This document shows positions 5,976-13,015 of a stretch of 64,000 bases of DNA, piece by piece. The stretch comes from an uncultured delta proteobacterium (GTDB taxonomy: Bacteria > Desulfobacterota > Desulfomonilia > UBA1062). The notes below the pieces were generated by a model that ran no database searches, was not told the DNA's origin, and saw only the letters and a program-made list of their open reading frames with translations. Both the position numbers and the translations under genes were made by a program. The stretch lies in NCBI GenBank assembly GCA_963798485.1, contig CAWCTR010000007.1, forward strand, positions 256,001-320,000, in the 5' to 3' direction. How positions within the stretch are numbered: position 1 is the stretch's first letter; every line of letters begins with the position of its first letter.

Positions 5976-5982
5976 TTATCGG

Positions 5983-6186
5983 ATTATTGTCCCTTTCTTT
6001 TGGCGCCAAAAGAAAGGGACGAAAGAAAAGGCGCCCCGTGAACCCGCCCTTCGGGTCCGTTCGCTCGCTTGGAAAATCCGGGCCGCGGCTGAACTCGCTC
6101 CGTTTCACTCCGCTCAGACAGACGCCGCTGTTCCCCCGGATTTTCCCGCACTCGCTCACCGGGTTCAAGGGGACGAACAAAAACCC
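5983..6186 (+). repeat. Left copy of ~200-bp structured repeat (inverted relative to 12812-13015)
   Basis: Aligns base by base with reverse complement of 12812-13015 with about ten differences. Confidence 0.92.
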
Positions 6187-6349
6187 TGCATGAGCATCAC
6201 TTGCGAGCCGGACAATCAAGCCTCAGGGAAAAAACCTTTTAAGATTCTTTCCTTGATCAAATCCAGCCAATGAAGTAAGCTGTAATATGTGAAGTGCTAT
6301 AGGTTTCAGAGACATATCGTCTTCAGAATTTTCTGCAGTTTATCTGTAT

Positions 6350-6405
6350 TATGCCCTTATACAGAATTCTGCATTATCAATAATTCTGTATAGTAATTGT
6401 TGGGC
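6350..6405 (+). other. Putative attI-like site / first cassette core site
   Basis: GTTGGGC (6399-6405) is the exact complement of the cassette's R'' GCCCAAC (6897-6903); AT-rich upstream with inverted repeat TATACAGAATT (6358-6368)/AATTCTGTATA (6382-6392); no attC arms upstream. Confidence 0.55.
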
Positions 6406-6430
6406 CTTTATCAAGGAGGAGATAGCATCT

Positions 6431-6889
6431 ATGGATCTCAATCTAAGCTGGCACAAACATCTACCATTAACGGATGACTCAGAGAACAACGGCGTCTACA
6501 CAGTTGATCTCTCTCGTATTCCAAACTCCGCAGGTATCTATATGTTCTTTCGGGTCCACGGGGATTCGGCCAAGTGCCTCTATGTCGGAAAGGCAACAAA
6601 CCTGAAGGCCCGGATCAAGACGCAACTGAATAATTCGAAGCTAATGCAAGGCATCAAGAACTCGGCCACGGGAGCGCGGAGGTTGATATTCGGGGAGTTC
6701 ATCGCAAAACCCGGCCAACAAGAAGAGAGAAGTTTGTTGGCTATGGAACGCACACTGATTAGACACTACCTTTCGCTGGGTGAACAGTTGTTGAATATCA
6801 AAGGCACACGGATGGTAAAGAACTCAGTCACTTCTGACCGTCCAGAACTGAAGAGTTTCATCCCTCATGTGATTTACTTCGAGGAGTGA
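6431..6889 (+). CDS. GIY-YIG nuclease-family protein (integron gene cassette 1)
   Basis: 'IPNSAGIYMF...LYVGKATNLKARI...ERTLI...LNIKG' UvrC-N-like GIY-YIG motif; RBS AGGAGG; bounded by core site and attC. Confidence 0.8.
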   Translation: MDLNLSWHKHLPLTDDSENNGVYTVDLSRIPNSAGIYMFFRVHGDSAKCLYVGKATNLKARIKTQLNNSKLMQGIKNSATGARRLIFGEFIAKPGQQEERSLLAMERTLIRHYLSLGEQLLNIKGTRMVKNSVTSDRPELKSFIPHVIYFEE

Positions 6890-6896
6890 GTGCATG

Positions 6897-6991
6897 GCCC
6901 AACAAGGCGCTCCAGGCGGACCCCTGGGGCCGTCAGTCCTTGCAAAGTTTTCCGTTCACCTGCCCCAGGGGCCGCTGAGCTTGGCCGTTAT
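6897..6991 (+). other. attC site of cassette 1 (R' interrupted by group II intron after GTTAT)
   Basis: R'' GCCCAAC; arms ctcCagGcggAcccctggggc (6910-6930) / gccccaggggccgctgag (6962-6979) with extrahelical bases; R' GTT at 6987. Confidence 0.88.
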
Positions 6992-7635
6992 TCGCGATGC
7001 GAAGTTGCATAATCGAATGTGATTACAGGAGGATAGAGAAACTGGAAATCACCTGGTGTGTCTCCGCCAGTACCCTAGGACGGCATGCGTGCTGTGCGTT
7101 GTGCAGCGGGTGTGAAGCCCGTCCGACAATGTACCGAACCGGGAGGAAGCCGTGAGGTGGAATCCCATCCGAGAATCCCGCTCGGTTAAGGGCTAGGGTC
7201 AGGGCAATATGGCGAGAACAGGCAAAGGATTTCACGCGCCGTCAGACGAGCAACGGACCTACAGGGATTAAGAGGTCTAAGACGTGCTTCTCATGTGTTT
7301 GCACGTGTGGGGAGGTTGCAGGTTGCTAACGTACCTGCACGGGTCCTAATAAGCCACCGGCGTTCAAGTCCCGCCTACGTTGTCCACAATGGTCGATTAT
7401 GCAGAACGCAGTAACCCCACCCCTTCGCCCGGTGCAAGACCTGGCAGGCATTACCGTAAGGCGTGCTGTCGGAGCGGTGGGAAAGAGAGGTCGGAAGAAG
7501 CAAATGCCGCAGGTAACGCTACGGATAGGGCATGAGACATGGCCCGACGCGAAAACCGGGAGCATCAGCCCCGGTGAGAGCGTGCAGACGTCCGACCGGT
7601 GTCTTGGTGCGAGAGAACTTGGAGAACCTTTGGAG

Positions 7636-9135
7636 ATGGGAAGGCAAAAGACGGCTGATAAGGCTGGTGCACTCATCGCTGACGCGCAGAAGTGGAAATC
7701 CATTGACTGGAGAGACTTAAGGCGTCAGGTCAGAAGGCTGCAGGTACGTATCGCACAGGCTGTGAAGGAAACCAGGTGGAACAAGGTAAAGGTGCTTCAG
7801 TATCTGTTAACCCGCTCGTTATACGCCAAGCTGATGGCTGTGAAACGGGCGACCTCCAACAAGGGGAAGAATACCCCTGGCGTTGACGGCGTCTTGTGGC
7901 GAAGCGCCCGAGCCAAATGGCGGGCTGCGTGCAGCCTGCGCAGACGTGGCTACAAGCCTCAGCCGCTCAGGCGGATTTATATCCCGAAGAAGAATGGGAA
8001 GAGGAGACCTCTATCGATCCCAACCATGCAGGATCGGGCAATGCAGGCACTGTATAAACTGGCACTGGCCCCGGTAGCGGAAACAACTGCCGACAGAAAT
8101 TCCTACGGCTTCCGTGAAGGACGGTCGTGTGCCGATGCAGTAGCAGCAGCATTCAATGCCCTGTCCAAGCCGAACTCGGCAACCTGGGTGATGGAGGGAG
8201 ACATCGAAGGATGTTACGACAACATCTCCCATGACTGGATTCTCAGAAACATTCCGATGGATAAGACCGTGCTGCACAAGTGGCTGAAGGCAGGGTACGT
8301 GGAAGACAACAAAACGTATCCGACCCGCAGAGGAACACCGCAAGGAGGGATAATCAGCCCGACCATTGCAAACATGACGCTCGACGGTCTGGAGGAGGTC
8401 ATCCAACGTGCAGTCCCCCGTCGAAGCCGAGTCAACTTCATCCGCTATGCCGATGACTTCATCATAACAGGCAAATCAAAACGTCTGTTGGAAGAAGACA
8501 TCAAGCCTGCGGTGGAGATGTTTCTTGCGGAACGCGGTCTATCCTTATCACCAGCCAAGACTGCGATCACCTACATCAAGAACGGGTTTACGTTCCTCGG
8601 GCAAACTTTCCGAAAGCATGGACGGGTGCTGCACATCACTCCGGCAAAAGAGGGAGTCCTCGCCCTCGTACGGAAGTTGGGAACGATTATCCGCAAACAC
8701 GTCAGCGCGCCGATGCCGGTCCTGATCAAGGAGTTGAATCAGACACTCCGAGGCTGGGCCAATTACCACCGCCACGTGGTAGCGTCGGATGCCTTCTGTC
8801 GCATCGACACCTATGTCTTCGAACAGTTGTGGCGTATGGTGCACAGGCGTCATCAGAGCAAGCCCGTGAAATGGCTGATCAAGGAATACTGGACAGCCTC
8901 GGGTCTAAAACATATATTTGCAGTACGCTCGAAAGATGCCAAAGGTCGAGTAAAAGTATATCAGGTTCTCAGAGTATGCACCATAGGCATTCGAAGGCAT
9001 AGGAAGATCAAAGCAGACGCGAACCCTTACTTGCCGGAATACGCTGCTTACTACTGGCAGCGCAGGCATGAAAAGGAAAGCAAACTGCTTGCGGCCCTCT
9101 CTGCTCGACAGATTCGAGCGATGAAGGCCGCTTAG
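7636..9135 (+). CDS. ltrA: Group II intron reverse transcriptase/maturase (CL-like, no HNH endonuclease)
   Basis: RVT_N 'WKSIDW...VRRLQVRIAQA', 'TPGVDG', 'GTPQGGIISP', 'RYADDF'; ORF-track start 7399 lies inside ribozyme domains so a later start is used. Confidence 0.93.
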   Translation: MGRQKTADKAGALIADAQKWKSIDWRDLRRQVRRLQVRIAQAVKETRWNKVKVLQYLLTRSLYAKLMAVKRATSNKGKNTPGVDGVLWRSARAKWRAACSLRRRGYKPQPLRRIYIPKKNGKRRPLSIPTMQDRAMQALYKLALAPVAETTADRNSYGFREGRSCADAVAAAFNALSKPNSATWVMEGDIEGCYDNISHDWILRNIPMDKTVLHKWLKAGYVEDNKTYPTRRGTPQGGIISPTIANMTLDGLEEVIQRAVPRRSRVNFIRYADDFIITGKSKRLLEEDIKPAVEMFLAERGLSLSPAKTAITYIKNGFTFLGQTFRKHGRVLHITPAKEGVLALVRKLGTIIRKHVSAPMPVLIKELNQTLRGWANYHRHVVASDAFCRIDTYVFEQLWRMVHRRHQSKPVKWLIKEYWTASGLKHIFAVRSKDAKGRVKVYQVLRVCTIGIRRHRKIKADANPYLPEYAAYYWQRRHEKESKLLAALSARQIRAMKAA

Positions 9136-9226
9136 GAGGTATCACAGTCGGGCCGCTCCACAGGAGCTGCCTTCAAAGATGCTTGAGCCGTATGATGGGA
9201 AACTATCACGTACGGTTCTGAGGGGG

Positions 9227-11167
9227 TTGCGCCTTGAAGCGTTTGGAATACAGTGGTCTGAAATGACCACCTTGGTAAAGCCTAGCCAGCAGCCAAGTAC
9301 CGAGTCTTGCGTGGTGAGCGGTAACAATCACTGCGAAGCGTAGACAGGAAGGTGATAGGCCGGAATCGAAAGATGAAGAGGATAATTAGCCCCGAAATCG
9401 AACGTGTTTGAAGCAGTCGACCTTATCTCTCTATGGGGAAGACAACAATCTCATGGTCGCTTAATGGCAAGAACATGAGATTGCTTCCGGGGTACGAACC
9501 TACGGCATGTTACCAAAGGATTCCAAGTGAACAAGGGAGATCCGGCGAACCCAGGCGGAGCCTGTAGGAACAAACAAGCCTACAAAGCGAGGATGTTCCG
9601 ACGGTTTGTCGGAAGTCGGACTGGCTGATAGTACTCAGAGACAGGGAGAGCCTGTTACAAGGGGAAGCGGCCAGCGGGATTTGAGCTCTTCTAAGGAAAC
9701 ATGAGCTCCATACAAAGGGAGGATACGAGCCTTAATGCAAAGTAAGGATAACTCAGTCATGGGAACGGGATTAGAAGGGATAGCAGCAAAAGCTCGAAAG
9801 GAAACAAAGCTCAAGTTCACGACATTATGCCATCATGTCACCCGAGAGTTGATCTGGAAGAGTCTGAATAGCATTCCTAAACAATCGGCACCGGGAGTGG
9901 ATGGTATCAGCGTGGAGGAGACGAAGAAGACATTCGATGCATGGATAGACGAGATGCTAACATCCATACACCGAAAAGCCTACCATGCACCACCGGTAAG
10001 GCGGGTTTGGATACCCAAGCCTGGGAAGACCTCCAAGAGGCCTATAGGCGTACCTTGTATGGCGGACCGAGCACTGCAAAGAAGTGTTTCGGTGGTTCTG
10101 TCAAGTATTTATGAACAGGACTTTCTGCCGTGCTCATTTGGAGGCCGACCGAAACTGAGTGCCCATCATGCCCTATCCACACTCAATGAAATCATAGCGG
10201 GCAAGAAGGTCAGTTGGGTACTCGAAGCAGATCTAAAGAACTTCTTCGGTAGTTTGAACCATGGATGGATAGAACGGTTTGTTGAACATCGAGTCGGAGA
10301 CCCGAGGATTATAAGCTTGATAAGGCGATGGTTAAAGGCTGGCGTCCTGGAAGAGGGCGAGGTGAAACCGGTTGAAGAGGGGACTCCCCAAGGGGGGTCC
10401 ATCAGTGTACTGCTGAGCAATATATATCTCCATTACGTTTTGGATCTTTGGTTTGAAAGGGTGATAAAACCCAAACTGAAGGGAGAAGCCTATCTGGTAA
10501 GGTATATAGATGATTTTGTAGTATGCTTTCAGCTTAGGTCGGATGCGATCTTCTTCCAAAAGGTACTGGTAGAAAGACTTGAGAAGTTTAGCTTGGAATT
10601 AGAACCTGAGAAGACCCGGTTAGTGGAGTTCGGGCGCTTTGCCCAACGCGAGGCAAAGGAAAAGGGTAAGAGCCTGGAGACTATATACTTTCTGGGATTT
10701 ACCCATTACTGTACCCGCAACCGCAAGGGCAACTTTATGGTGGGTCGCAAGATAGAAAAGTCTCGATTCCGGCGGAGTGTTCAAAATTTACAGGCACTGA
10801 TGCGGGAAATCAGGCACTATTCCTTGGGAGAACAACTTGAGAAAATCAACCAAGTGCTGAGAGGCCACTATGCTTACTATGGAGTAGGTGGGAACGTTAA
10901 ATCATTGTTCAAGATTTACCGTATTGCCGAAAGATACTGGCGTAAGATGCTGAGTAGCCGGAGCCAGAAGAGCTACATAACCTGGGATAGATTCTGTTGC
11001 CTTAAGCAGGTGTTTCCGTTACAGCAGCCCAAGCTTTCTGTACCCTTCGGGAGGATGAAAGCACTCGCTGTGCTGTGAAACAAATTCTGAAGAGCGTAGT
11101 GCGGGAAATCCGCACGCTACGTTCTGTGGGGGTTGGGGCTGCCAATTTGCAGCCCCTTCTACCCGGC
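9227..11167 (+). mobile_element. Inner group II intron (bacterial class E-like) inserted between DV and DVI of the outer intron
   Basis: 5' ttgcg; conserved DI 'gagtcttgcgtgg...tgcgaagcgtagacag'; DV gagcgtagtgcgggaaatccgcacgctacgttc (11092-11124); DVI ends tacccggc; candidate EBS1 ctctct (9427-9432) pairs with exon aggggg (9221-9226). Confidence 0.87.
9735..11078 (+). CDS. ltrA: Group II intron reverse transcriptase/maturase (class E-like, no endonuclease)
   Basis: 'KFTTLCHHVT', 'APGVDG', 'LEADLKNFFGSLNH', 'GTPQGGSIS', 'RYIDDF', thumb 'LRGHYAYY'. Confidence 0.93.
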   Translation: MQSKDNSVMGTGLEGIAAKARKETKLKFTTLCHHVTRELIWKSLNSIPKQSAPGVDGISVEETKKTFDAWIDEMLTSIHRKAYHAPPVRRVWIPKPGKTSKRPIGVPCMADRALQRSVSVVLSSIYEQDFLPCSFGGRPKLSAHHALSTLNEIIAGKKVSWVLEADLKNFFGSLNHGWIERFVEHRVGDPRIISLIRRWLKAGVLEEGEVKPVEEGTPQGGSISVLLSNIYLHYVLDLWFERVIKPKLKGEAYLVRYIDDFVVCFQLRSDAIFFQKVLVERLEKFSLELEPEKTRLVEFGRFAQREAKEKGKSLETIYFLGFTHYCTRNRKGNFMVGRKIEKSRFRRSVQNLQALMREIRHYSLGEQLEKINQVLRGHYAYYGVGGNVKSLFKIYRIAERYWRKMLSSRSQKSYITWDRFCCLKQVFPLQQPKLSVPFGRMKALAVL

Positions 11168-11209
11168 GAACGGGGCGGTAACGCCCCCGACCTACCCGGT
11201 GAGTAAAAG

Positions 11210-12643
11210 GTGATGAGAACATTTTATAGATTTCGATCAACGCATACTTTGCTTGATGGCCGCCATGAGTTGGAGAACCAAGAGATTTATTTTGCATCAC
11301 CAGAAGAACTCAATGACCCCATGGAGGGCTTCAAAGACATTTATTGGCAAGGAGATGAGGTTGCATGGAAAAACCTTATGATTCATTATCTCCTCTGTCT
11401 GGAACACGTGTGTTCATTATTTATTGTTGGAGGTAATAGCGTTGCCATCAAGACAGGAGACATTCCTGTTTTCAAGACAGAAGAACAACTGCCTACTGTG
11501 CAATACAAAGGCTTGTTCAATGAAATAATGAATAAGTTCTTCGGAAATGAAATGATTAGTCAATGTATAAAGAATCTTTCGAGCAGGTCAAGCCCAGTAC
11601 GGCGAAGTGAGTTACTGACTTATATCAGAAGTTTTCATCCATATGCTCTGGAAACTATATTTGCTTTATACGAACGCCACCACCTAATTGATAAGCGTAA
11701 AGATACAGATCAAATTCGCCAGATTGCTGAAGAAACTTTGTCACACTCCCCGATCTTATTGGAACTTACAAATAAATTTGAAGAGGAGCATCCTGATGTA
11801 GAGCGTAGTGCGGATAAGCTTTTCTCTACTGCAGCGCATATAGCTTCACAACTCGGTTTGATTACGAGATACAATGTTTCACCTCCTAACGATGATAATA
11901 GAATATTCCTCCTTTTCGGCTTCCCCGATGGGTACATCCAAAGCATTGAGCGAATTGTGTATCCTGACTGGTATGCAGCCTGTTTCATGACAAAGTACAG
12001 CAACTCTTCCGTATGGGGAAATTATGGAAATAAGCATCAAGGTGTATGCCTATCTTTCAAAGCAGTGACCGATAATGATCGCGCTTATATCAAGCTTTAC
12101 GGAATAAATGGATGGGGTAGTTCTGGCCCAAGCTATGGGATAAGAGATCATACGTTCTATAAGATTGATTATGAAAAGAAACACGTCGAAGTCGATTTCT
12201 TTAGGTCTTTAGGTCGTCTTCCAAGCCCTGTATTGATGAAGTGTTGGTATACTAATGAAAACGGCTCAAGAAGTACTTGTGCTGACGACATTTTTAAATA
12301 CGAGGATCAGTGGAGGGAGAGATACTGGACAAAATTCTACCAAGGAATAACTACGAAGATTGTGGATTGGATGTATGAGGAGGAATACAGACTGATTCTG
12401 ACCGGTTCCATTTTGGATTATAGTGATCCTGAGAGCAGAAAGCTCAAGTTTGACTTCAATGACTTGGAAAGCATCACATTCGGGATAAAAACCTCAACAG
12501 AAGATAAACTAAAGATAATGAAAATAATTGAATCGAAATGTCGAAGCGAGAATCGGAAAGAATTCGATTTCTACCAAGCTCATTATTCCTGGCAAACAGG
12601 AACCATAGAACGTAGCAAAATGGATCTACTTTGCTTTGCATGA
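11210..12643 (+). CDS. DUF2971-like protein (integron gene cassette 2)
   Basis: 'FYRFR', 'YFASPEELNDPMEG', 'WGNYGNKHQGVCL', 'K..DW.YEEEYR', 'ITFG' motifs; AT-rich; followed by R'' box. Confidence 0.7.
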   Translation: MMRTFYRFRSTHTLLDGRHELENQEIYFASPEELNDPMEGFKDIYWQGDEVAWKNLMIHYLLCLEHVCSLFIVGGNSVAIKTGDIPVFKTEEQLPTVQYKGLFNEIMNKFFGNEMISQCIKNLSSRSSPVRRSELLTYIRSFHPYALETIFALYERHHLIDKRKDTDQIRQIAEETLSHSPILLELTNKFEEEHPDVERSADKLFSTAAHIASQLGLITRYNVSPPNDDNRIFLLFGFPDGYIQSIERIVYPDWYAACFMTKYSNSSVWGNYGNKHQGVCLSFKAVTDNDRAYIKLYGINGWGSSGPSYGIRDHTFYKIDYEKKHVEVDFFRSLGRLPSPVLMKCWYTNENGSRSTCADDIFKYEDQWRERYWTKFYQGITTKIVDWMYEEEYRLILTGSILDYSDPESRKLKFDFNDLESITFGIKTSTEDKLKIMKIIESKCRSENRKEFDFYQAHYSWQTGTIERSKMDLLCFA

Positions 12644-12646
12644 AAA

Positions 12647-12672
12647 TACTCATAACAAGCTAATCCAGCGGC
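12647..12672 (+). other. Truncated attC (R'' and L'' only) of cassette 2
   Basis: tactcATAAC-aagctaatccagcgg; no matching L'/R' arm visible downstream. Confidence 0.65.
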
Positions 12673-12811
12673 GGGTGGCCTTGGAATGAGAGGAAATCCT
12701 GGGTGACACGGGCGAAGCTCAAAGAGCTTGCCCGTGGGATAGGAAAGTTAAAGACGTAAGATTTCTCCCTGCGGTCGAAATGACAAATAGAAAGTAGTGA
12801 AGTGGTCTTTT

Positions 12812-13015
12812 GGGTTTTGTTGTTCCCCCCTTGAACCCGGTGAGCGAGTGCAGGAAAATCCGGGGGAAAGCGGCGTCTGTCTGAGCGGAGTGAAACGGAG
12901 CGAGTTCAGCCGCGGCCCGGATTTTTCAAGCGAGTGAACGTACCCGAAGGGCGGGTTCACGGGGCGCCTTTTCTTTCGTCACTTTCTTTTGGCACCAAAA
13001 GAAAGTGACAATAAT
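12812..13015 (-). repeat. Right copy of ~200-bp structured repeat (inverted relative to 5983-6186)
   Basis: Reverse complement matches 5983-6186; ends 4 nt from the asnS stop codon. Confidence 0.92.

Follow-up and report, generated by a model that had tools for sequence, protein, structure and literature searches.

A group II twintron splitting an integron attC R' box, with an outer lineage that appears to home to attC and an inner lineage that appears to home to introns

The locus discussed here raises the question of what separates the two halves of an integron recombination site by more than 4 kb. The stretch of DNA analysed, hereafter the window, comprises 64,000 nucleotides (nt) of contig C7 (C7:256001-320000) in the 4.3 Mb assembly of an uncultured delta proteobacterium, and the segment in question, window positions 6992-11200, interrupts the R' box of the first of two attC sites. 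A sequence-only reading had taken this segment for one chloroplast-like (CL) group II intron that homes to the attC core on the top strand and becomes cargo of the downstream cassette. We find that it is a group II twintron, composed of two introns, one placed within the other.

The anatomy can be read from the domains present. Rfam recognizes two regions of domains I to IV (RF02012 at 7052-7193, 91.2 bits, and RF02005 at 9261-9502, 144.3 bits) and two domain V/VI regions (9183-9276 and 11090-11167), while two reverse transcriptase (RT)/maturase open reading frames (ORFs) in 6992-11200 are identified by Pfam. The border between the introns is provided by a second genomic copy of the outer intron, L002, located on the minus strand at C7:635779-638017 and 97% identical, in which window position 9226 is joined directly to 11168 and the inner intron is absent. 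Therefore, the inner intron corresponds to 9227-11167, and the outer intron to 6992-9226 together with 11168-11200. The joint of 9226 to 11168 is also carried by one contig of run X4, so that a complete intron lies within another whose uninterrupted form is known from both L002 and this contig. Contigs of run X1 terminate at 6992 and at 9226, and the exon-exon joint of 6991 to 11201 was not seen in the contigs of the four DNA runs.

An alternative explanation holds that the segment is a single chloroplast-like intron of 4.2 kb that has taken up a long insertion, with the second RT as a passenger gene, and the outer boundaries alone do give a cleanly rejoined attC. However, the segment contains a second full set of domains I-IV, V and VI, and 9227-11167 is precisely absent from L002 and the X4 contig, L002 by itself already refuting this explanation. 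Moreover, the same 1941-nt unit sits inside other introns on contigs C18 (100% identity) and C3 (89%), and has its own covariation between exon-binding site 1 (EBS1) and intron-binding site 1 (IBS1). We consider the chance that a single intron is present to be negligible, and on this point the sequence-only reading has to be abandoned in favour of the twintron.

The 5' part of the outer intron (6992-9226, plus strand) holds domains I-V together with the beginning of domain VI, starts with UCGCG at the same base as L002, and gives the RF02012 match, which is of the D1D4-7 type. Its RT/maturase of 498 amino acids (aa) runs from the ATG at 7639 to 9135, in a frame open from 7399, and matches Pfam RVT_N, RVT_1 and GIIM. 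Domain V (9185-9218, plus strand; RF00029, 60.8 bits) forms a hairpin 8 nt upstream of the inner insertion point, which lies in the 5' strand of the basal helix of domain VI, 8 nt past domain V. The remainder of domain VI forms the 3' part (11168-11200, plus strand), with a GNRA-capped helix, a bulged A at 11194 and the 3' end CCCGGU. In L002, where the two domains are uninterrupted, domains V and VI take a canonical fold (-39.4 kcal/mol, z=-3.96) with the GNRA cap and the bulged A 6 nt from the end. The outer element shows what is expected of a group II intron, namely the catalytic triad in domain V, a bulged A in domain VI, an RT/maturase in domain IV, and ends of the GUGYG-like 5' and AY-like 3' kind. 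These ends are UCGCG and GU in the window, and GUGCG and AU or U(U/C)GCG and GU in its relatives.

The outer boundaries were set independently by L002, where similarity begins at TCGCG and ends at CCCGGT. In regard to the lineage, a scan of one genome per species gave 137 relatives, of which the best 79 loci, 64-80% identical, were kept; the 5' start was recognizable in 60 of these 79, resulting in 55 unique sites flanked by 30 nt or more. Among the 55 relatives that have both ends, covariation of the first and the penultimate intron base is seen in 53 (28 with U and G, 25 with G and A, 2 exceptions), and the boundaries are supported because of this covariation. In outer and inner lineages alike, the first base is often U in place of G, in which case the penultimate base is G in place of A, a natural covariation.

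Concerning its class, the outer RT aligns with the PDB chain 6me0_C over 473 residues (13-485 of 562) and scores 546 bits, while it reaches at most 139 bits with the mitochondrial-like and class C RTs compared (LtrA, GsI-IIC and the RTs of E. rectale and R. intestinalis). It contains the YADD motif and ends about 77 residues short of the C-terminus of the 6me0 chain, Pfam found no HNH endonuclease domain in it, and its homologues at 75-92% identity are 492-557 aa long. We take 6me0 to be the TeI4h ribonucleoprotein. TeI4h is described as a IIB1 intron, EcI5-like (PMC2882425). Judged by its sequence, the outer RT is thus predicted to be endonuclease-less and chloroplast-like and the intron to be IIB1-type, the CL assignment being drawn from similarity to one solved RT and from Pfam RVT_N.

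The site itself shows the features of an integron attC. An integron cassette begins with TT completing the preceding R' box, and its start pairs with the R'' of its own attC. Cassette 1 (6400-6987, plus strand) starts with TTGGGCC after G6399, contains an ORF at 6431-6889 with a Pfam GIY-YIG match (E=6.2e-5), and ends at the G of the GTT of attC1. Its start (6400-6406) is the complement of GGCCCAAC (6896-6903), the R'' of attC1. This attC (6896-6991, plus strand) has the AAC of R'' at 6901-6903 and the GTT of R' at 6987-6989, followed by AT, and its L'' and L' arms are imperfect, with extra bases in the 5' arm. The R' box resumes at 11201, past the twintron, so that GTTAT (6987-6991) and GAGTA (11201-11205) flank the element. 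The rest of cassette 2 (11201-12736, plus strand) begins with this GAGTA, which completes the R' box, and continues with an ORF of 477 aa (11210-12643) that matched no Pfam family and with attC2 (12647-12736). Removing 6992-11200 rejoins GTTAT and GAGTA into GTTATGAGTA, which complements the R'' end of attC2, TACTCATAAC, at 10 of 10 positions; the latter is unique in the window and located at 12647, 4 nt past the stop of the cassette 2 ORF. The target therefore presents inverted R'' and R' cores, imperfect L'' and L' arms and complementary cassette ends. The outer intron lies on the top strand in cassette orientation, between TTAT and GAGTA and 4 nt 3' of the G/TT crossover of attC1, as the sequence-only reading had placed it, and the junction of that reading holds as well, as does, judged by similarity, its CL-type RT. 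It does not correspond to a group IIC-attC intron, as its RT is CL-like and it occupies the strand that reads from R'' to R', the same as both cassette ORFs.

The strength of attC-like arms was assessed through the duplex energy between the 27 nt after the upstream AAC and the 27 nt ending in GTT, with 600 random CGTT sites of the window's genome as control. This score is self-made and uses no curated attC model; as a positive control, it lights up the attC array next to the integron integrase gene (IntI) on contig C5. For attC1 the energy is -20.3 kcal/mol, below the minimum of the controls (-18.3 kcal/mol). A constrained minimum-free-energy test was dropped in favour of the arm-duplex test, having poor specificity and controls that contained downstream attC sites, and a loose attC regular expression run across the genome returned mostly noise, the real-looking matches being only the three sites already known.

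The relatives of the outer intron come mostly from Desulfobacterota metagenome-assembled genomes, but also from Acidobacteriota, Lentisphaerae, Chlorobiaceae, Bacteroidota, KSB1, WOR-3, Verrucomicrobia and further groups. A GTT is found at most 9 nt from the junction in 52 of the 55 unique sites, preceded by C in 46 of the 52 and followed by A or G in 48 of the 52. Among the 55 loci with both ends, the U(U/C)GCG...GU sub-type sits mostly after GTTNN (24 loci; 4 after GTTNNN), and the GUGCG...AU sub-type mostly after GTTNNN (17 loci). Arm-duplex energies could be compared at 50 sites, of which 30 fall at or below the 5th percentile of the control, 21 at or below the 1st, and 11 below its minimum (Mann-Whitney p=1e-16), and the arms carry extra bases in the R''-L'' arm, typical of attC. 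The rejoined R' has a perfect downstream complement of at least 8 nt at 12 of 46 sites, compared with 73 of 1892 mismatched pairs used as control, and these complements are R''-L''-like sequences. Two of the 79 loci (L070 and L027) have an integrase gene at most 4 kb upstream and in the same direction, whose product is 52-56% identical to those of the present genome. In these two loci (L070:2256-3500 and L027:1407-3500) intI precedes, and shares the strand of, both the intron and the cassettes, which is the "inverted integrase" layout; in L070 the intron starts about 240 nt after intI, and its target there was possibly attI, or else the first attC. A further side observation is an unexplained insertion of about 1.35 kb near the 3' end of the RT ORF in L064 (L064:5257-6605).

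The outer intron most probably reads this target through EBS1. In the window, a domain I hairpin at 7317-7339 (plus strand), with the stem tgcaggt/acctgca and the loop UGCUAACGU at 7324-7332, displays CUAACG, which forms five of six possible pairs with the 5' exon CGUUAU. The homologous loop reads (N)CUAACG in U-type introns and NNUAAC in G-type introns, and this shift of 1 nt in the loop register matches the 1-nt shift of the insertion point between the two types. Over 56 sites, EBS1 pairs with all of the last six exon bases in 23, with five in 28 and with four in 5, so that at least five of six pairs form in 51 of the 56 at one homologous loop; with permuted exons, 19% show six, 47% five and 32% four pairs. 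Exact matches to the exon are found in L014, L018 and L065, and compensatory pairs in L022 (GTAATG with CAUUAC), L087 (CGTTGG with CCAACG) and L017 (GGTTAT with CUAACC). The loop is assigned as EBS1 because these changes co-vary with the target. Accordingly, the hairpin noted in the sequence-only reading is present and in the proposed EBS1 position, its proposed check, whether the 5' flanks of relatives end in attC...CGTTAR, is answered by flanks that end in CGTTRN within attC-type hairpins, and homing to the top strand of attC by a CL lineage is supported by the 52 of 55 GTT sites, the arm test and the EBS1 covariation.

It could be argued that such a lineage homes simply to the short CGTTAR, and that attC is hit incidentally, through enrichment of the hexamer or local spread in arrays. 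EBS1-IBS1 pairing was detected without an EBS2-IBS2 signal, 20 of the 50 sites fail the arm test, and a few sites that deviate from GTT still match EBS1 (for example L022, L025 and L030), all as this explanation would have it. However, the 6-mer recurs about once in 4 kb, yet 30 of the 50 sites, in many genomes and phyla, abut the 3' end of attC-type inverted repeats, and all 600 random CGTT sites are surpassed by 11 of the 50. In addition, near-identical introns occupy different sites on six contigs of one genome (L026-L031, L060, L063, L064, L070, L079, L081), and rejoined junctions match the R'' of the next cassette in 12 of 46. Targeting by the short sequence alone is thus improbable, and since 5-6 base pairs are insufficient for restriction to attC, an added specificity cue would be needed; the top-strand hairpin, the single-strandedness of the replication fork or the RT itself could provide it.

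Alternatively, the upstream hairpin could be a 5' extension of the mobile element instead of a pre-existing attC, as it directly precedes most copies. The upstream hairpins differ, however, between the two copies in the present genome and among near-identical copies in one other genome, where the introns follow different sequences at positions -7 to -12, and the similarity between copies begins at the first base of the intron, with the exception of the conserved CGTTA. The complementarity of the cassette ends also spans the intron, and IntI adjoins it in L070 and L027. A hairpin carried by the element is therefore very unlikely, and a pre-existing attC remains the preferred target. The second copy, L002, likewise abuts the 3' end of an attC-like site (AGCTAAC...GAGCTTTAACGTTAA/TCGCG), in the position that the outer intron takes in attC1; this site comes after a gene, and no further attC is visible downstream.

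The inner intron (9227-11167, plus strand, 1941 nt) is a group II intron unrelated to the outer one, starts with UUGCG, ends with CUACCCGGC, and gives the RF02005 match as well as RF00029 at 45.9 bits. Its RT/maturase frame of 447 aa (9735-11078, plus strand; Pfam RVT_1 and GIIM) has a YIDD motif, and the protein probably starts at a conserved Met at residue 9, the relatives being 439 aa long. With every class of solved RT it scores 98-127 bits, none being preferred. Its domain V has the AGC triad. In class C introns, domain V has CGC in place of AGC. Besides the window copy, the genome contains the inner intron on C18 and C3, each time in domain VI of another, different intron.

A metagenome scan gave 581 relatives of the inner intron, of which 80 were kept and 44 unique sites flanked by 60 nt or more were tested. 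In a strict hairpin test of our own design, a domain-V hairpin ends 8-9 nt before the junction at 30 of these 44 sites; L093, L111 and L114 show the same placement by eye, beyond those 30. Beyond the junction, the remainder of a domain VI follows in the 3' flanks (CCCTACCGCGA and similar sequences). Hosts belong to at least three Rfam D1-D4 types, and in L004 and L141 Rfam places the domain V/VI of the host directly before the inner domain I. The inner EBS1 loop (AUCUCUCUA, 9424-9432, plus strand) was recognized by covariation with the 5' exons of relatives: a perfect 5-nt complement to the own 5' exon is present in 41 of 49 relatives, compared with 12.9 for shuffled exons, and compensatory changes include GAGCG with CGCUC, GUCGG with CCGAC and GAUGA with UCAUC. 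In the window, the inner EBS1 CUCUC pairs with GGGGG of the outer intron only by means of G-U pairs, while it pairs perfectly with GAGAG of the host on C18. Given this fit, the identity of the window copy with the one on C18, and the presence of the inner intron in one of the two outer copies, a recent invasion of the outer intron from a C18-type donor is suggested.

Two loci of the inner lineage deserve separate mention. Hosts can be short and apparently ORF-less; in L141 (L141:32-879) a D1D4-2 type host of about 600 nt was invaded. Locus L118 (L118:202-1056) contains two D1D4-6 regions separated by 620 nt, a sign that members of the lineage may also invade one another. The extra 1.9 kb of L021, an outer relative considered as a further twintron, was rejected as such, since it is an IS4/Tn5-family transposase element in the linker between domains V and VI (L021:5571-7454), with terminal inverted repeats and a 9-bp target duplication.

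Taken together, the explanation that a twintron lies in the R' box of attC, with an outer lineage homing to attC and an inner lineage homing to introns, is in our opinion highly probable. Several observations weigh against parts of it. In the outer lineage, GTT is lacking at 3 of the 55 sites, the 20 failures of the arm test count here too, position -1 is mismatched with EBS1 in both genomic copies (U-C and A-C), and a scan for EBS2-IBS2 pairing found no column above the shuffled level. The CL assignment depends on a single solved RT and on RVT_N, as stated above. At the locus, attC1 folds no better as single-stranded DNA than shuffled sequences (z=-1.4 and -0.9), the last triplet of attC2 is GTG instead of GTT, and no integrase is found among the neighbours of the array in the window. 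In the inner lineage, 11 of the 44 sites are outside domain VI, often after other hairpins, and no RT of this lineage is present in any of the 79 loci of the outer one, so the pairing is so far unique to the window. Finally, a search of RNA runs with window 6300-12800 gave no match, which bears on splicing, its order and activity.

From the observed anatomy, boundaries, target patterns and covariation we infer the order of splicing, the activity of the introns, the part played by the hairpins and the use of a single-stranded target, as follows. The outer lineage would find its target by pairing of EBS1, (N)NUAAC(G), with the R' core (C)GTTRR(R), the added mark of attC most likely being its hairpin or a single-stranded top strand during replication. 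Such a cue is to be expected for an RT that cannot cut the second strand. Concerning replication, the GC skew along contig C7 is too noisy to call the leading and the lagging strand. The inner lineage would pair its 5-nt EBS1 with the start of the host domain VI, for which the host domain V probably serves as the upstream stem-loop landmark, as terminators do for class C introns. As the element is a twintron and not one intron, its removal from array transcripts, foreseen in the sequence-only reading as a single event, needs two ordered splicing steps. The inner intron would have to splice first, rebuilding the outer domain VI, and the outer splicing would then rejoin GTTAT and GAGTA a short distance before the cassette 2 gene begins. 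Both introns would travel with cassette 2, because both are located 3' of the crossover, and the GTT and the hairpin of attC1 are left intact; the element is thus cargo of the downstream cassette, as had been proposed.

A broader model can be derived from this, in which three layers of mobile DNA would be stacked at the locus and two of the target specificities would be previously undescribed. A CL lineage present in many phyla would home to the top-strand R' of attC, possibly also of attI, and ride with the downstream cassette, while the inner lineage would be a specialized intron parasite that uses domain V as a landmark and inserts into domain VI, twintrons then being common in environmental bacteria instead of extremely rare. 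We consider the arguments for and against this generalization to be evenly balanced.

In regard to the genomic context, the array consists of two cassettes, situated between tRNA and polyhydroxyalkanoate-synthase genes on one side and an aminoacyl-tRNA synthetase gene on the other. It is an integrase-less cluster of two attC sites, comparable to a CALIN (cluster of attC sites lacking integron integrases), and not a complete integron. Three integron integrases above the TIGR02249 cut-off (437-460 bits) are encoded elsewhere in the genome, at C5:12795-13733, C19:228-1175 and C12:6524-7471, and no group II introns were found in their arrays. The integrase on C5 is accompanied by an array of about 12 attC sites (C5:800-10100), with a second tyrosine recombinase gene in between. 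The window array is bracketed by a repeat of about 200 nt, present as an inverted pair with 94% identity (5980-6190 and 12812-13015), and about nine more full or partial copies with 80-91% identity occur on C4, C7, C9, C11, C13, C15 and C30; the repeat may be MITE-like (miniature inverted-repeat transposable element). At its edges, attC2 (12647-12736) ends with GAGCTTGCCCGTG, and the array begins after GTAATTG/TTGGGCC, preceded by an AT-rich stretch with ACAGAATTCTG-type repeats (6340-6400). These edges could be an attI remnant, or could result from cassette insertion at a secondary genomic site.

If the explanation holds, top-strand targeting of attC by a CL lineage through the conserved R' bases represents a second and mechanistically different solution beside that of class C introns. 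In sense orientation, the intron could be spliced from cassette transcripts; it would also leave the recombination site undamaged and move along with the cassette. Expression and annotation of integron arrays would be affected, as such introns add "cassettes" of 2-4 kb. IIB1 introns are the basis of targetrons, and a IIB1 intron that recognizes a structured site by only 5-6 base pairs could consequently be useful in practice. Judging from the inner lineage, parasitism of introns by introns in domain VI may be common in sediments and soils, and the pair of introns offers a natural system in which the splicing of one ribozyme is gated by another.

Comparison with known systems limits the novelty in one respect and extends it in another. 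Sonbol & Siam (2021, PMC7923331) described UHB.I2, a IIB1/CL1 intron with 5'-UUGCG..GU-3' ends, located in cassette orientation immediately after an attC in a cassette array of a soda-lake metagenome. They reported that flanking exons are poorly conserved among homologues and only speculated on a role of the hairpin (PMC7923331). UHB.I2 has a CL1-type RT without an endonuclease domain, as is predicted for the outer intron, and shares with it unusual ends, cassette orientation and adjacency to attC; as far as its published description goes, the outer intron very probably belongs to the same lineage. UHB.I2 was a single case, however, while the present work on the outer intron shows a lineage-wide CGTTRN target, covariation of EBS1 with R', and the exact position in R'. 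It was the sole description of CL introns at attC found in the literature searched, and none of lineage-wide targeting was found. The inference of an integron-targeting lineage in the sequence-only reading is thereby upheld for the lineage-wide target and reduced in novelty by this precedent (PMC7923331). New here are the lineage-wide attC target, its exact place in R' and the pairing with EBS1, and the novelty is widened by the intron-targeting inner lineage.

Targeting of attC has been regarded as a trait of class C introns, which enter the bottom strand and thus run against the direction of transcription (PMC4424553, PMC3001079). The group IIC-attC introns, such as S.ma.I2 (Leon et al. 2010, PMC3001079; Zimmerly & Semper 2015, PMC4424553), share with the outer intron the specialization on attC, an endonuclease-less RT and a DNA hairpin beside the insertion point. 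They differ in having a class C RT and IIC RNA and in inserting in the bottom strand, antisense to the cassettes, whereas the outer intron is CL-type, in the top strand, sense, and in the R' box. On the other hand, IIB1 introns of the TeI4h/EcI5 type (Mohr et al. 2010, PMC2882425) provide the closest solved RT and likewise carry EBS1 in a domain I hairpin loop, yet they recognize long, sequence-defined sites with EBS1, EBS2 and EBS3, unlike the outer intron, which gives no EBS2-IBS2 signal and has a structured recombination site as its target.

As for the inner intron, class C introns insert after terminator stem-loops (PMC1702495, PMC4424553), and resemble it in a short IBS1 right after a stem-loop, a minority of the inner relatives following terminator-like hairpins; the inner RT is nevertheless about as distant from class C RTs (120-127 bits) as from LtrA (118.5 bits). 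No description of a lineage homing to domain VI was found in the accessible literature, in which subscription journals are partly outside coverage. Introns within introns are known from Thermosynechococcus elongatus, where TeI3 lies in TeI4 (PMC2882425), and M.a.I5, P.l.I2 and B.th.I3 target the YADD codons in the RT genes of other introns (PMC2504315); bacterial twintrons have been called extremely rare in connection with the Trichodesmium case (PMC4649490). Such bacterial and archaeal twintrons have in common with the one in the window the site-specific homing of one intron into another and the need for ordered splicing. In the known cases, however, insertion took place in domain IV or in the RT ORF, while the inner lineage described here inserts into domain VI, 8-9 nt past domain V.

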